DNA from: Octopus sinensis
Taxonomy: Eukaryota
Direction of reading: 5' to 3'
DNA length: 64,000 bases
Assembly: GCF_006345805.1 (NCBI RefSeq)
Contig: NC_043007.1
Location: 60,388,001 to 60,452,000, forward strand
Made by a program: the position numbers and the translations under genes. The notes beneath the pieces were generated by a model. The model was not told where the DNA came from. It saw only the letters and a program-made list of their open reading frames with translations, and ran no database searches. Shown here piece by piece: positions 1-63,380 of the stretch (position 1 is the first letter of the stretch; each line of letters begins with the position of its first letter).

Positions 1-2716
1 TGTGTTTTTGACATCTATTTGGTGGACATGTGTCTATACATACATGCATACCTATATATATAAATATTTATATATCATCATTATTTTAATGTCTATTCTT
101 CCAAGCTTGCATGATTGTAACATTTGTTTACAACAATTATCACGTGATGACATGGCTAGGAGACAGCAACACATGTACTCACACATATACTGATAGATCT
201 ATATAGATAGACAGACAGACAGACAGACAATCTGTGTCTCAACATTTAGAGAGAACACATTGATTTGTTGTTTATAGTTTAGGATTTTTTATTACCACAT
301 CAGTCAGTTGACCTGTATTATCCATTCTGATAACAGTTGTAACCCATAGTACTGTCAGGCAATCTTTTTCTAAATGATTTTTGTAATTGTAACTTTTCTT
401 GATTGTTTAAATTTCTAAGTACCTCAGTATTTTCTAATAAATTTATATTTCCATCAATAGTTAAAATTCACATACTTGACATGATTTCATTCTCTTCATC
501 CTTTAAAATGTTTTTTTTTTTTTTGTTTTGCCATATCACATGCATATAGAAATCAATTCTGTAGCACAGCTTTCACCTCTTATCTTCAATATTGCAGCTA
601 AGTCTAATGCTTCATTGTTGATTTGTTTCTTTGTATCTATGAGTCTTCCTTGATAGATACTATCCATTGTGAGTTTATTTCTCCTATTCAGTTTTCATTA
701 TATTTTGATTTTGTCATCATTATCATCATCCTCCTTTAACATCTGTATTCTATACTGCTGTGAGTTGAATGGTTCAACTGGGCCTGACTGAAAGTTGTGT
801 TGGTCTTTAGTGTCTGCTTTGAAAAAGTTTCTACAGCTGGATGCCCTTCCAATGCAAACCACTTTACAGATTGTACCCTGTGCTTTTTACATAGTACCAG
901 CACTAATGGGAGTACCAAGTAATTCACAAGACTAGACTCACTGAGTGGGGTGCAAAACTGAGGGAGGTGGCTTTGTTCCAGGTGTAGAGAGGCTAAAGTA
1001 GAAAAGGGTATCCCAACAGAAAAGGGAGAAAGGATAGTAGAGATGAGATACGAGGGTGTGTCTTCAAAGTACAAGAAGTTGAATAGAGAATAGGGGCTGA
1101 GAATCAAGGGCAGCTGAGTGGGTTGGTAAAAGATATGAAGTGAGAGGGAGATGGAAGATACACAGTGTCAGAGACAGAAGCTACATATACATAGGAGAGG
1201 ATATAGTGAGTTACAAAAAGGAGAATTGATGGCACAGATGAAAGGGTGTTCAGGAGAAATGGACATTGAGTGGACACGTGGTGGTAAGGGATGATGTTGG
1301 GCGTGCACATCCCTTATTCCTGTTAATTTCCTTGTGTGCTGTTGTCTTGCCTGTTCCTATGTTGAGTTGGAATTTCATTGTGTTTAGTTTTGAAAGCATT
1401 TTTGTTTTTATTTAAGTAAGTTTGTTCTGTAAGTGTAAGATTATAGAAGAATTCACTAAGTTGGTTTGCTATAAGGAGTGCAATGATGTAATTATGAGAT
1501 TGTAAAAATGTAGAACTCTGTAGCAGCAAGCTGGAGAACTAAGAGTAAATGTTTTTAATAGAATTTGCAATGTAGATCTTGTGCAAATAGTTTTAAATTA
1601 AGAATGACTAATTTAAAGCTGGCTTTTATTTTCATTAAAAATAACCCACTGTTTCTATTTACAACCAGTAAGCATCAGTCTTTTAGTTGTTTGCTCTGTA
1701 AGCTATGAGCAGCCTTTTTGCTTTTAGTCATTATTTTTATGTTATATCCTGCCAGATATGGTGCTGTGGTATTGCTTGTAACTTTTCTCAGAGAACCTGA
1801 TATCTATTCTCCCTCTAGATTAATGGAGATTAAGTGTCTTACTCAAGATTGTCTTACTCATAAACTGCAAAAAGGAACTCAGGACAATGTGATCTCATGT
1901 GATTATAGTCCTGTACTTCAACTATTGCCAGTTTTGTGTGAACAGACATATGAAATCAGCTTTGGGGTTGTTCACAACATAACTGGGTATGTTAATATAA
2001 TATAAGCAGATGTGTACATACTTATACTGATTTGAGTCTGTTGAGTTACTTTAGACTTTGCTGATAAATTAATGTTTAAACCTGACAATCAGCCAAAATA
2101 TCAGATTTACATAGCTAGCATGCAAGTAGGTTACTAATGTTGTGAAGAAGTGCTATAATGAATAGTCTTGTCACATTGTGTGTTAGAACACACCAGGTTA
2201 TCTTTAAGTTAAAGTCTTGTATTACAAATAAGTACAACTGTCACTGAGTTCTGAGCCACACATAACCACAATTCAAAGAACTAAGCACTCTTCTTTGCAA
2301 GAAATAAAGTTAAGCCTCCTTTTAGAAAAAATTCCTCTCAAAAGACTTCCAATTTACACCATGTTTTGTTTTGTTTTTTCCCCAGTTTATCAAAAAAATT
2401 TCTTTGGATAATTTTCTTTTTCAATTTTCAATCATCATGGCAGAATAAGGATTTGGTGATGTTGTTTATTAAGGTGATGTTGTTTATTAAAGATTTATTA
2501 TCTATCTTATTATTTACGTAGAGAAAGAAAGTTTCAACTTGTAGAAAATAAAGCTGTTTCAGAGTTATTTGTACACATCTGCAATCTAAGTGATTCTAAC
2601 TGGAATTTGTGTAGAGATTTATCAACATTGTATCAATGTTTTTTTGTTGAAGAATGGTATGGTTTAGAAAAAAAAACATTAATTTACTTATATATTTTAA
2701 ATGCACAATCTCTGGG

Positions 2717-3153
2717 GAGAGGAGCAGCCCGTTTCACCCGTTCCGAGTTCAAAAGTAGATTGAGGGTGCCAAGGTCCCCGGGGCCTCCAGTCGTTCGCTT
2801 TACCAGACGGAATTGCATGTCGTTCTCCCGCTGGTGCCAGCTATCCTGAGGGAAACTTTGGCGGGAACCAGCTACTAGACGGCTCGATTGATCTTTCGCC
2901 CCTACACCTGGTTCTGGACAATCGATTTGCACGTCAGAGGTGCTTCGGACTTCCACCAGAGTTTCCTCTGGCTTCATCCCAACCGGGTGTGGATCGCTGT
3001 CTTTTGGGTCCCCGGCCACCTGCTACATCTGAGTCGGTGCGGGAACACGACGATGCGCGCTGACCCGACCTAGGAACGATGCTTGGAAGCGTCGCGGGCG
3101 CGGCGACAACGACGTGTCACGTACTCGCAGTCGACTGGGACTCCTCGATCTGT
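2717..3153 (-). pseudogene. Retroposed fragment of large-subunit (28S) rRNA, D3 region and following core helices
   Basis: Reverse complement contains GAAGCCAGAGGAAACTCTGGTGGA, CTGACGTGCAAATCG, GGGGCGAAAGA, CTAGTAGCTGGTTCC, AGTTTCCCTCAGGATAGCTGG and GGTAAAGCGAA, the conserved eukaryotic LSU blocks in the correct order. GC/CpG-rich island in an AT-rich intron. Confidence 0.93.
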
Positions 3154-3550
3154 GGAGTGGCTGTGTGGTAAGTAGCTTGCTTACCAACAACATGGTTCCG
3201 GGTTCAGTCCCACTGCGTGGCACCTTGGGCAAGTGTCTTCTACTATAGCCTCGGGCAGACCAAAGCCTTGTGAGTGGATTTGGTAGACGGAAACTGAAAG
3301 AAGCCCGTCGTATATATATATATATATATGTGCGTGTGTGTTTGTGTGTCTGTGTTTGTCCCCCTAGCATTGCTTGACAACCGATGCTGGTGTGTTTATG
3401 TCCCCGTCACTTAGCGGTTTGGCAAAAGAGACTGATAGAATAAGTACTGGGCTTACAAAGAATAAGCCCCGGGGTCGAGTTGCTCGATTAAAAGTGGTGC
3501 TCCAGCATGGCCGCAGTCAAATGACTGAAACAAGTAAAAGAGTAAAGAGT
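3154..3550 (+). mobile_element. tRNA-derived SINE (family A), lacking about 7 nt at the 5' end, fused to the 28S fragment
   Basis: A-box-like TGGCTGTGTGG, B-box-like GGTTCAGTCCC, CORE-like CCTTGGGCAAGT, internal TA/TG microsatellite, (AAAGAGT)n tail; near-identical to copies at 26903 and 56651. Confidence 0.9.
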
Positions 3551-5089
3551 AATCTCTGGGTTTGAGGGGAGAGTAATTATTGTAATAAGATTAAATAACA
3601 CTAATTTGTTAGTAATGGGCCTTACAAAAACCTTTGAATGAAGATGAAAGTATATCTCAGAATTCTTTTCCAAATGGGTGCTGTGACAGAGACTTACTAG
3701 AGTACATATTCAACTCTGAGTCAGGAAATCAATGAACAGGAATTTATGTCTTGTAAATAGATGTGAAACACATAACCTACATGGAATAATGTGACATGAC
3801 AACTGGTAAAATTCAAGGGGCAAAAACCATACTCAAAATATACATTAACCATCATTATATCCTTTATTAAGTTTCATCCAAATTCACTCAATGGTTATAT
3901 TTTCATGATTTTTTTTTCTACTAATTGTATTTCATTAAAATCTCTAGTTTCTCAGGATTGGAAGATTTATAGAAAGCACTACAGGAATTTAAAAGTTAAG
4001 GCATTGTGTATTTGAAAAGTTTTTTGTGCACATTCTTCCATTGCTGATAGAGAAAGAGAGCAGAATTGTTACCATAAAATGTAGTTTAAGATAAAATAAA
4101 TAATGTGCTATGAAGAGCTTGATTAACTGGTGTGAACAGAGGGGGCAGCTGTAGAGTTTCATAAAGAAAAAGACAATAAATATGAACTAAGAAAAGTATT
4201 GTCTTTTTCAGAAATGATTGCTGAGATATCAAAAGCAATATTTCAGGCTGGTGTCATATAACATACAAAATGACTGCAAGAAAATCTCATTCTTGATGGT
4301 TGCCATAATAATGTACTTGTTAATTGTTGGATTATGCAATGTAGTTGGTTGAAATACAACCACTGGGAAACTAGTACAAGGTAACTTAAATAGCCACCAA
4401 TGAATTGTATGTTTCCAGGGATAATGCAAAAACAACAAAAATCTCTATCTTGCATTTATTTCAATCATTCTTCTGCAATATGTTGATAAAAGACAAGCTT
4501 GGTGAAACTAGTTCAGGTTTTGCAAGTAGCTACTACAAAAACTATAATCAAAGTTGGTAGATGAGCCAATCATTGATTTAGTATACTGTTGGGTATACAA
4601 ATCCTCTTATTTTCATTATAATACCAGAAGCAATCATAAGTTCAGGTCTGTATACTCATGAAGACATGTATTCTAATGATTTGATTTTAATTCCAGATTC
4701 TATTGAAGGATTGCACAACAAATTTACAAGATAAAACTTGAAAGAAAACAACCAAATTTTGCTTCCTGCTTAAGTAAGAAAACTTTCATCAGCCACAGGG
4801 AAGTAGCTGATGAAAGCTTTTAGCCATATGTGGAATACCAAAACTCAGATGGAAATTACTACTGTATTTTGTATGTATTGGTTGTTTTAAATGTGTAATG
4901 GCTTCTCAGGTGTAACAGAGAATCCAAGCTTTAGAAGCACCAGAAGCTATTTGAGCAACCATCAGCTGAAGACTGTGTAGACTCTTCCAGATGTGTTTAC
5001 TGAAAGTTAATACATTATGCTCTCTAAAGGGTATAATTTATGCCAGAAGGAGAAAGTGGTAGCAGGGTGGTTAAAGAAAGAGTGAATCT

Positions 5090-26902: not shown

Positions 26903-27131
26903 CTCTTTATACTCTTTACTCTTTTACTTGTTTCAGTCATTTGACTGTGGCCATGCTGGAGCACCACCTTTAATTGAGCAAATCGACCCCAGGACTTATT
27001 CTTTGTAAGCCTAGTACTTATTCTATCGGTCTCTTTTGCCGAACCGCTAAGTTACTGGGACGTAAACACACCAGCATCAATTGTCAAGCGATGTTGGGGG
27101 GACAAACACAGACACACAAACATATACACAC

Positions 27132-27224
<93 letters not shown>

Positions 27225-27401
27225 TATATATATACACGACAGGCTTCTTTCAGTTTTTGTCTACCAAATCAATCCACTCAGAAGGCTTTGGTTGGCCCGA
27301 GGCTATAGTAGAAGACACTTGCCCAAGGTGCCACACAGTGGGACTGAACCCGGAACCATGTGGTTGGTAAGCAAGCTACTTACCATACAGCCACTCTTAT
27401 G

Positions 27402-51599: not shown

Positions 51600-54500
51600 T
51601 AATCTATATTTAATACAATAGATATCTCAGAATCAGAAATTGTCTCTTGGCAACTCTGGAGATATCTTAGAGTCAAAGTTTGTCACTTGATAACATGGTG
51701 GGTGGGATATTCCCTTCAGCAATGGACAAAGAAAAAGATTAAATCTTTGGAGTGCCTATGGTGTAGCCTAAGCTGCAAAACCCCTTCAGTGATTGTTATT
51801 TTTGCATTGTTAATATGAAAGGCTTCAGTTGTTACAATAAAAGACAAACAAGGGATTAACCTAATTTGGAATCTCCACAGTGACCAGTACCAAATAGCAA
51901 AGAAATTCCTATACCACTGATTACCTCAGTGCTTGACCTTCCTTTTCAGATATTGAAAAAATGCAGAGCTTGGTGTAAACTATAGATTGTAATCATCATC
52001 ATCATCATCATCGTTTAACGTCCGTTTTCCGCGATAGCAAGGGTTGGACGGTTCGACCGGGGTCTGGGAAGCCAGGGGCTGCTCCAAGCTCCAGTCTGAT
52101 CTGGCAGAGTTTCTACGGCTGGATGCCCTTCCTAACGCCAACCACTCCGCGAGTGTAGTGGGTGCTTTTTACGTGCCACCTGCACAGGTGCCAGCGGGGG
52201 TCCGGCATCGGCCACGATCGGTTGGAGCTTTTAACGTGCCAGCAGCATGGAAGCCAGCCAAGGCGGCGCTGGCAACGTTCGGATGGTGCTTTTTATGTGC
52301 CTCCGGCACAGAAGCCAGTCGGAGCGGCGCTGGCATCGGCCACGTTCAGATGGTGCTTTTTATGTGCCACCGGCACAGAAGCCAGTCGGGGCGGCGCTGG
52401 CATCGGCCACGTTCGGATAGTGCTTTTTATGTGCCACCGGCACAGGCATTATAACTACTATTTCCATTGATATTTATTTCGACGTTCATGTTCATGACTC
52501 AATAGATCTCCTCAAGCACAGCGGGACGTTCTGGGATCCAAGGTACTTTGAATGGGCAGGGGCTATGCGGAACTGATGCAGGAAGCAGCCCGGGTCTTTG
52601 CAGTCACAGCATATCTCCAGAGATCTCGGTCCTTTGCCATTGCCTCAGTGAGGCCCAACGCTCTGAGGTCATGCTTGACTACCTGACTACCTGTAATGGT
52701 GAAAATAAATATACAGTATGCTTATTGACACTAAAGCAACTCTCCGAGAAAAAAAACTTTACGACCTGATATGAGACTTCAGTTTTTGAAAGCAGTCCCT
52801 GAACCTAAGCATCCAGGCTAAAAGAAAACTGCTACAACCAGAAGTGAAAGTAACAGCTTAGCAAAAAAGAGAGGAGGTACTTCTTCCTTACTTCAGCAAA
52901 GATGAAGATATTTTCTACTACAATAGCATCCCTGGACTTCTCTAAATGGGACTACCAGAATATCAACCACAAGATTGGCAACCTTTTATAGACAGCTCCA
53001 CCAGAACATTGAAATGTATTTTTATTACACAATGAAAACTGCTAGGCATCTTTATCAGTTGCTCATTCAATTAAAAATGTCAAAATTCTCTAGGAGAAAC
53101 ACTGCATGAGTACCACTAGTCTATTTGCTTTGACTTAAGGTTGGTGAATTTCTAGTTTGGATAGCAAAACAGCTATATGAAAAAACTTTGTTTCATGAGC
53201 AGTGGCCGCTTGTAGATAAAATGAGTTGGGGTGCTGCTTCAGAAAATTTTTAGAAAAAGAATATTTAAACTTGATCGGTTTGCATTTGATAGTAGTGTGT
53301 TTAATTTTTTCACTGAACACCACTGTGAATACCTATGGTTTTTAAAAATCCCACCTAAAACACAGAATCAGGGGCGGAAATCAGACCTATTTTTCAAATC
53401 CTGATGCTGAAAGCAGGATAATAATCTAATTCTACACTTTGTCACATTCAAGAATATAAACACATTTTTAAGCACAACACACGCGTAGTCAAAGAAACAC
53501 TACCTTTTACCGGCATTGCATGAACAACAGTGCTCTCTGTCCCTAGCATGAAGTTTCCTATCTCGAACATGTGAGCATGCACACAACAGCCAAACACTAC
53601 ATTGCTGGAATTGTGAAGTGCACAGTTCTATACAAAGATTTTTGTTTTTTTTCCATAACCTAGGGGATGACTACTGACATTAAGCTTAGGAATTATATAA
53701 TAAAGAAAGAATTAAAGAAAAATGGACTCATCATATTGAATGTTATCAACAATATCGAAATAGCGGGTGCTGCAGTTTCACAGTACCTCTCCATAAGCCA
53801 CCACTGTTCATTAGCAGAAAGTGACCTGGATTTCAAGGGAGACAATTGCAGTAGGGACTGAACATCATTAATGAATCTTTAATTCAAAAAGAAAACATCA
53901 TTTGTCATCCCCTTTACAGCAGACTTGAACAACTGAAGCAATTTTCCAAAAGTTTGGACAATGATGATGTTTGCATTTACAGATTGTTCCTCGACTTGAG
54001 AATTCAAAAACTAAAAGGAAGAATGAGAATATTTTTTGCTTCCTCATATTTGTAAACTCATTGTAGATTCTAGTCTTCTGAAATAACTACTTGGGCATTT
54101 TCCAGAGAATCTTGAAGATTTCAGTGAGGAACAAAGGGAGAGGTTCCACCAGGATATAAGAGTGATAAATGAAAGGTATCAAGGCAGATAGGACAGACAC
54201 AATGGCAGGCTTGTGCTGGACCCTTCAGCATAAATGTCCTGCTAAACCACACACCCACAAAAAATCATAGTGATTTTTTTAAGGGATTGATTGATATATT
54301 TTAATGTATTTAATTAGCCAGTGTGTCTGCATATTGTCGCGTAGACTATTATTGCATAAGATGCCATAAAATATTTTGCTTATTTTTTTCATGATTTTTT
54401 TTGTGTTACAATGTGGTATTTCTTTTAGCATTTTATGTCAATATGTTCTGATGTTTTATTAAAAAATTAAAATATTTTAAATTCCATCATGCATAAAACT

Positions 54501-56650: not shown

Positions 56651-56783
56651 GGCGCAGGAGTGGCTGTGTGGTATGTAGCTTGCTTACCAACCACATGGCT
56701 CCGGGTTCAGTCCCACTGCGTAGCACCTTGGGCAAGTGTCTTCTACTACAGCCTCGGGCCAACCAAAGTCTTGTGAGCCTGTC

Positions 56784-56835
<52 letters not shown>

Positions 56836-57075
56836 GTGTATATATATGTGTGTATATGTGTGTGTGTGTATATATATGTGTGTCTGTGTTTTCCCCCCAC
56901 CATCGCTTGACAACCGATGTTGGTGTGTTTACGTCACCATAACTTAGCAGTTCGGCAAAAGTGATCAATAGAATAAGTACTAGGCTTACAAAGAATAAGT
57001 CCCGGGGTCAATTTGCTCAACTAAAGGCGCTGCTCCAGTATGGCCACAGTCAAATGACTGAAACAAATAAAAGAA
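56651..57075 (+). mobile_element. Family A SINE with complete 5' end (GGCGCAGGAGTGGC...)
   Basis: Matches 3154-3550; a second partial copy lies at 57331-57480. Confidence 0.9.
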
Positions 57076-57300: not shown

Positions 57301-58605
57301 AATATACACACACACACACACACACACACATGTGTGGTAAGCAGCTTGCTTACCAACTACATGATTCCGTGTTCAGTCCCACTGCGTGGCACCTTGGGCA
57401 AGTGTTTTCTACTATAGCCTCGGGCCAACCAAAGTCTTGTGAGTGGATTTGGTAGACGGAAACTGGAAGAAGCCCGCCGTACACACACACACACTAAATC
57501 ACAAGTGTGAATGTTTGTGTTCAAAAGGAAGCTGGGAAATATCTGTGAGAATGAGAAATATAGCTAGAGAAGTGGGTTGCAAAACAGAAGAATGAGAGTT
57601 GCTAGACAGACGAACATTACAGGACAGGCATACAGGAGAAGATAACTCGCGTAACACCAATTTTTGTAGCATATCATAGTTGCAAGATCATTTAGATGTC
57701 AGTTAAAAGTTTAACATATTTAATGAGAGTGTAATGATTCTGTAAATCTGGCATCTGTGTATGAGAAAATAATGACGTACAGCCATATCTGACCATGAAG
57801 CTAATGGCTTGCATTGTTTTAGGTGTCAATGCTTTCCTGATTTCTCTCCCTTACATTTACGATATTATGATAATGTTGTTTACTAATATTTCTGTCTGTG
57901 ATATGTAATCCAAACCTCACTTACTGCATCAGATTAAAGAAACAAACTAACTGCTAATCTAACCTGTAAGCAAATCCACAGATTCTATTGGTGATATTTA
58001 AAGAAATATGTCAAGTTGTCAAATACAGCCTAGGTAATATGAAAAGAAGGCAGGTGCACCTATGCTTTTTGATTCCAGATAACCACAGTTGATAGCCATG
58101 CCAATTTCTCAATAAGCAGAAACTCTGCTCATGACTTTGTTGCTATTAACACTGCATCTTCAACAAATAAACAAACTCCATGAAGATTTTTCTTGTTGAA
58201 TAGATGACAAGATAAATGAAACAGCCTTTTAACCTTTTGTGCTTTACTCAGTACCTTAAAATGGGTCTTGTTGGAGCCTCTACAAGATCAAATGTCGGGT
58301 ATCATATGACATAGTGGTTGGATACTCCAGTAACAGATTCTAACGTCATCTTTTTCTAAAACAGTTAGCAGTCTCCAAGGTCAGATTGACACATGCAGTT
58401 TCTATTAAATCAGGCACATTTTTTCAATATGATAACATATCTTTATATATTTCTATGTATGAGAAGCAAGAATATTTTGAATAAAATGTCTGTTTATAAG
58501 ATTGTTGAATTGGTTGGAAACATAATTAATTGATGATGAAGATAATGTTAGCTCAAACAATTTTATAGAGAAAGAACTATCAATATTTCTGTAAAATTAT
58601 CCTAG

Positions 58606-62879: not shown

Positions 62880-63380
62880 TATGTCGGTGGCATGTAAAAA
62901 GCGCCATCCGAATCGTGGCCGAAGCCAGTGCCGCCTCGACTGGCTTCCGTGCAGGTGGCACGTAAAATGCACCAATCCGACCGTGGCCGATGCCAGCCTC
63001 GCCTGGCACCAGTGCAGGTGGCACGTAAAAAGCACCCACTACACTCACGGAGTGGTTGGCGTTAGGAAGGGCATCCAGCTGTAGAAACATTGCCAGATAA
63101 GACCGGAGCCTGGTGCAGCCTTCTGGCTTCCCAGATCCCCGGTCGAACCGTCCAACCCATGCTAGCATGGAGAACGGACGTTAAACGATGATGATGATGA
63201 TGATGATATATATGTGCCAGTGGCACTCACGGAGTCGTTGGCATTAGGAAGGGCATCCAGCTGTAGAAACACTGCCAGATCAGACTGGGCCTGGTGCAGC
63301 CGCCTGGCTTCCCAGACCCCGGTTAAACTGTCCAACCCATGCTAGTATGGAAAGCGGACGTTATATGATGATGATGATAT
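62880..63380 (+). mobile_element. Two tandem family B retroposon 3' parts
   Basis: Both end in CGGACGTTA...(ATG)n; reverse complement of the 51992 type. Confidence 0.85.

Follow-up and report, generated by a model that had tools for sequence, protein, structure and literature searches.

A decaying antisense 28S rRNA copy head to head with a SINE in Octopus sinensis, probably inserted by one twin-priming retrotransposition event

A decaying copy of host 28S rRNA was observed in antisense orientation, head to head with a tRNA-like SINE, in a 64,000-nucleotide stretch of Octopus sinensis DNA (contig NC_043007.1, positions 60,388,001 to 60,452,000, hereafter the window), and the two parts were probably inserted together in one twin-priming retrotransposition event. 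The 28S piece is of a known kind, a decayed host 28S retro-fragment, and its head-to-head chimera with a SINE is somewhat uncommon. As it stands the locus matters little, being one among many rRNA retro-fragments and ordinary genomic debris; it is at the same time a clean candidate for twin priming of a SINE RNA and a 28S rRNA outside mammals. No report of the locus or of mollusc SINE/antisense-28S chimeras was found among the papers listed in a literature search confined largely to non-subscription papers. The features of the composite insertion are presented in Table 1.

Table 1. Layout of the composite insertion in window coordinates
Feature	Position	Strand	Remarks
Left copy of target-site duplication	2707..2716	+	10 bp, AATCTCTGGG; final 2 G shared with the 28S fragment at its 3' end, as microhomology
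Decayed host 28S rRNA fragment	2717..3153	-	D3 region and conserved core after D3; 437 bases
Conserved core	2721..3041	-	28 substitutions at 320 sites against host units, plus a 1-base insertion
Expansion-segment part	3047..3112	-	Older-class states at 3112 and 3055-3049; length below that of either the old or the present class
Breakpoint of 49-base deletion	3122..3123	-	GCGAG repeat alongside, breakpoint one base off
Head-to-head junction	3148..3155	+	G3154 common to rRNA and SINE
tRNA-like SINE	3154..3550	+	Internal (TA)/(TG) microsatellite, (AAAGAGT)n tail
Right copy of target-site duplication	3551..3560	+	Perfect 10-base match to the left copy

The 10-mer AATCTCTGGG has only two matches in the window, against 0.06 expected, and as it stands at both ends of the composite and nowhere else in the window, one duplication encloses the 28S piece and the SINE; this bracketing duplication was absent from the initial annotation of the locus. 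The two enclosed parts lie in opposite orientations, and they share two bases with their neighbour at the left junction and one at the inner junction, lengths short enough for chance; the left microhomology was read from the continuation of host rDNA in the alignment. The opposite orientation and the junction microhomologies (at the 5' and the internal junction) are published signs of twin priming and, with the single duplication around both parts, support a single event. The surroundings of the 28S piece are AT-rich, its LSU match is the sole Rfam match in the 64 kb, ARAGORN found no tRNA there, and 13 open reading frames of at least 130 amino acids were recorded. Two GC-rich tandem arrays with units of 63-67 bases, which appear related, were also observed in the window at 52161-52445 and 62886-63036.

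In the proposed mechanism, a LINE reverse transcriptase would have copied the SINE RNA from the first nick by target-primed reverse transcription, the second nicked end, with its terminal GG, would have annealed to CC within a 28S RNA and primed a second cDNA, and the two cDNAs would then have been joined at the single shared G. After insertion CpGs would have been lost and neutral changes gathered, and the short-repeat deletions may date from the copying or from a later time. Comparable products are described in PMC13174262, where 18 human 28S/LINE-1 chimeras (83% sense, 28S fragments of 50-482 nt) carry, like the composite here, a 28S fragment at the 5' end of a retroelement, with a single duplication around both parts, and where antisense chimeras, among them those of 5S or tRNA with LINE-1, are attributed to twin priming; the partner here is a mollusc SINE instead of the LINE-1 of primates, and the 28S part is antisense and from the D3 region. 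PMC2912911 describes twin-priming junction microhomologies and tailless rRNA retrocopies, and SINE 5' inversion as rare. The 28S piece resembles those tailless retropseudogenes in being a 3'-truncated rRNA that lacks an A tail, seems to have been primed by the target DNA and is flanked by a duplication, and differs from them in that the duplication also encloses a SINE, head to head; it resembles the twin-primed, 5'-inverted L1 insertions of the same source in its inverted 5' part and in the microhomologies at the 5' and inversion junctions, and differs in that its inverted part derives in trans from a separate RNA and not from that of the element itself. Since the human chimeras are 83% sense and SINE 5' inversion is rare, the composite here would be of an uncommon type.

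The 28S piece is almost certainly of host origin, and its closest relative, as judged against host rDNA and Rfam, appears to be the host's own rDNA. The minus-strand LSU match (Rfam RF02543, 2868-3139, 139 bits, E 1.9e-33) covers positions 675-954 of the LSU model, and homology with host rDNA runs on to 2717, so that the host alignment spans 2717-3153; the initial recognition of a minus-strand 28S fragment is borne out. Of 118 candidate matches to the piece in the genome the best 40 were scored, and the highest-scoring ones other than the piece itself proved to be long, GC-rich copies of rDNA with 84% identity over the whole piece, deletions included. Ten long assembled rDNA copies (L002-L011) were utilized as a yardstick, and two of the ten were scanned for completeness of the unit: the region L002, which is also L067, contains 18S, 5.8S and full-length 28S (model 1-3401), and the second contains 18S and 5.8S together with a 28S whose match becomes broken beyond model position 1888. 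Over the 320-base core, four of the ten long copies equal the column majority and the remaining six differ by at most 6 substitutions. The 28S piece itself is a fragmentary, dispersed rRNA pseudogene outside any rDNA unit.

Capture of rRNA from an intracellular parasite or symbiont, which the initial annotation had listed among the possible templates, is scarcely credible on these comparisons. The piece is divergent from the Rfam consensus, and nothing else was found in favour of a foreign source; against it, 292 of the 320 core sites match host rDNA, host-type expansion segments are present in the piece, and at the seven sites (model 815-954) where host rDNA differs from a strongly conserved letter of the Rfam consensus the fragment carries the same departure every time (7/7, compared by eye on the Rfam alignments). 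Coleoid 18S rRNA is itself GC-rich, long and long-branched (PMC2841657). The host's own fast-evolving 28S, the first of the templates that had been proposed, is the one supported by the comparison with host rDNA. At the level of words, 5 of the 407 31-mers of the piece are present in host units, and RNA and metatranscriptome runs contain 0.05-0.10 of 42 words of the piece among the 21 runs listed in the run index, which is in itself no evidence of expression. Three runs of organisms B and C contain 0.24-0.26 of the 42 words (10-11), exceeding the 5 host-unit ones, a lead from index words only that hints at a common orthologous insertion.

The same host units account for the compensatory base pairs that had been taken as a possible sign of a functional variant rRNA. 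AGACAGC (2996-3002) faces GCCGTCT (2877-2883), and ACACCCGGTT (2981-2990) faces AACCAGGTGT (2904-2913), both at the places first described and opposed in the Rfam structure; the compensatory states are real but not specific to the fragment, as host rDNA reads AGATGGC/GCCGTCT and ACGCCCGGTC/ACCGGGTGT. A third proposed helix, TTCCG/CGGAA, consists of words that are present and identical in host units, but Rfam pairs TTCCG with 2732-2739 instead. Because the host copies already have the same helices and the fragment has the same seven departures, the compensatory pairs are changes of the host lineage and not of a variant rRNA. The view that most of the divergence predates insertion holds against human and yeast, owing to the lineage divergence of host 28S; the fragment's own changes give no signal of structural selection.

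Decay of the core was heaviest at CpG, where 18 of 78 positions carry transitions and one a transversion, while just 9 of the 242 remaining sites are changed, and the CpG loss of the fragment is the highest of the copies counted in the core comparison. Decay at CpG had been offered for the residual mismatches of the helices, and it fits 18 of the 28 core differences; the G>A at 2998 stands apart, since it lies in a host TG and needs a prior T>C at 2999 or a variant template. In a 21-locus alignment, where 18-20 copies cover these positions, seven of the nine non-CpG core changes are private to the fragment; of the remaining two, that at 2998 is also found in 2 copies and that at 2999 in one, the old-class copy L074, so that the template may already have had a complete C-G pair there. 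Among 76 Rfam pairs, Watson-Crick pairs fall from 59 in host units to 50 in the fragment and mismatches rise from 10 to 15, through five changes from Watson-Crick to mismatch, six from Watson-Crick to G-U, two from G-U to Watson-Crick and one double change (2941/2920), with CpG on both sides. When the same number and kinds of changes were scattered at random 20,000 times, 50.5 +/- 2.6 Watson-Crick pairs were retained against 50 observed and 14.6 mismatches against 15, at least one double change was obtained with a probability of 0.56 and at least two gains with 0.33; structural selection on the fragment's own changes thus gave no signal in the 76 Rfam pairs against the 20,000 scatterings.

In addition, 49 host bases are missing between 3123 and 3122, comprising two D3 hairpins, GCGAAAGCGAGA included. 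The host equivalent of the GAAAGTGAA block of D3 sits within this deletion; that block had rightly been described as unrecognisable, the cause being the deletion and not divergence. A working 28S would be unlikely to survive the loss of two D3 hairpins. The fragment decays neutrally, with an excess of CpG changes, a loss of pairs equal to that simulated and two conserved hairpins deleted, and it presumably yields no functional RNA. A functional variant rRNA is not borne out, as host units carry the same helices and the loss of pairs is what random decay predicts. Near identity to the ordinary 28S apart from CpG changes, which the initial annotation had named as the mark of a plain rRNA retro-fragment, is essentially what was found, except for 9 differences among the 242 core sites outside CpG and for an expansion segment that matches an earlier class of host 28S.

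To judge from the expansion segment, where positions 3112 and 3055-3049 of the piece differ in state from all ten long copies, the template was likely a host 28S somewhat older than today's. Exact matches to the 20-mer of the old state were found at 5 places in the genome, all of them decayed dispersed pieces of 0.3-1.7 kb, and the present 20-mer at 15 places, all ten long copies among them. With nine further matches added, the old states were observed in about 11 dispersed loci, several with independent flanks; five of these have a common downstream flank, and hence probably count as one event. At a nearby CTTC/CCTC site the piece carries the present state, so that its template was possibly intermediate. 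The core and its helices are identical in the old and present classes, and turnover by concerted evolution, with dead copies recording an earlier state, would be the simplest reading; dispersed 28S pieces would then record the replacement of an expansion segment while the core stayed fixed. A literature search for octopus rDNA pseudogenes under concerted evolution returned no paper. The five loci with the common flank (L026, L029, L073, L074 and L079; G000, three on C17 and one each on C11 and C6) have differing 5' ends and the same non-rDNA sequence, which is entered at about L006 position 2210 in four of them and about 100 bases earlier in L026, where the first bases of the shared sequence are absent; they may have arisen by duplication of a single old insertion or have been carried by a mobile element.

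Genome assemblies collapse rDNA arrays, and the older 28S could survive as a minor, unassembled class of host rDNA, expressed for example in the germline and hidden in collapsed arrays; in favour of this, its states recur at about 11 loci with several independent flanks. Such a class is very improbable, since all of the old-class copies inspected show decay or are mere fragments (about 73-94% identity to L006), since most of the non-CpG core changes are private to the fragment, and since its changes fail to keep base pairing; an intact unit with the old-state 20-mer was also absent from the 5 places in the assembly, where collapsed arrays are invisible. The second, germline rRNA type that had been suggested from the helices is not supported by them, because the core helices do not differ between the old class and the present one and so do not mark a second class. 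If such a class did survive, the host would possess two kinds of 28S, alike in their core helices but distinct in their expansion segments, and this would bear on specialised octopus ribosomes (cf. PMC13321053); nothing here indicates one. That source deals with a break of octopus 28S in another region, helix 88, and three host 28S motifs and two phrases had no match in its supplementary file.

The SINE lacks the first 7 bases of the 5' end present in most other copies. Its head is tRNA-like, with A-box and B-box-like words, and its genomic copies are very numerous (1411 first-look candidates); in both respects it is like the tRNA-derived octopus SINEs reportedly described by Ohshima and Okada in 1994 (cited in PMC9223172), and it may be one of these. 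Among the copies listed, rRNA was found upstream of the SINE in none of 28 (29 minus one without a match), and the junction was absent from these 28 SINE copies and from the other 28S matches examined (best 40 matches scored per search). The composite, found once, is thus not an amplified rRNA-derived SINE family; SINE28 of mammals, said to be a 28S-derived, amplified family reported by Longo in 2015 (cited in PMC13174262), likewise links 28S to a retroposon. More copies of the same SINE were observed in the window at 26926-27396, 56657-57066 and 57331-57476, together with older pieces, at 72-94% identity.

The gap in divergence between the two halves is the main result against a single event. 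Against the column majority of 26 copies, the SINE differs at 3 of 31 CpG positions and 5 of 311 others, compared with CpG transitions at 18 of 78 and changes at 9 of 242 in the rRNA half, which is about twice as diverged; the SINE value is biased low because its comparison copies were chosen by likeness to its 5' part. Each single test of the age gap gave p of about 0.17-0.18, and a pooled test with the CpG transversion included gave p of 0.02-0.03 when the whole SINE was taken. With only the 3' part of the SINE, which had played no role in picking the comparison copies, the pooled p was 0.25-0.35. An older template together with heavier CpG loss could account for the gap. The gap would also be explained if an older, tailless 28S retrocopy with its own duplication had been joined later by a SINE landing in the right-hand copy of that duplication, and such a two-step history would also give the resemblance of the junction 8-mer (3148-3155) to the duplication, with which it agrees at 7 of 8 bases. 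We consider this improbable: the middle copy, though it would be the younger, has 2 non-CpG mismatches in 9 bases where the outer copies agree at 10 of 10, the same bases also read as host rRNA with two transitions, and the difference in age loses significance when only the unselected part of the SINE is compared.

Slightly less improbable, and still unlikely, is one insertion in which the 28S was copied from an rDNA unit as DNA filler during repair of the SINE 5' end. The orientation of a filler would be free, and repeat-flanked deletions are not confined to the piece: L016, one of the long rDNA copies, has two in this part of D3, each with microhomology at its edges, so that such deletions need no reverse transcription. 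The piece lies wholly inside mature 28S, a position compatible with an RNA or a DNA template that nevertheless weighs against filler, and no closer decayed donor was present among the best 40 of the 118 matches. Moreover, rRNA is abundant and is a known template of retrocopies (PMC2912911), and flanks of 7-18 bases that look like duplications, some of them low-complexity, border several further short 28S pieces (L069 (C12613), L072, L061 and L022), as expected of tailless rRNA retrocopies. Twin priming from a 28S RNA remains the preferred reading.

Other 28S loci in the genome displayed features of their own. At the 3' end of L022, 34 bases are inverted. L019, L021, L022 and L025 end at L006 positions 1940-1956, near the 3' end of the window piece (2717), and such clustered ends may reflect a preferred 28S break or priming site, although the search query itself favours them. 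A 5'-truncated, inverted SINE stands head to head with 28S in the near-identical L023, L024, L027 and L030 (L066:1737-1970); these were rejected as a recurrent SINE/28S chimera type, as in L024, which is L066, the rDNA continues beyond the 28S end into a further unit, indicating a SINE-bounded array edge. A 141-base tandem repeat, with units up to 99% identical, adjoins truncated 28S in L003:1-1093 and recurs near L012/L013 (3' part).
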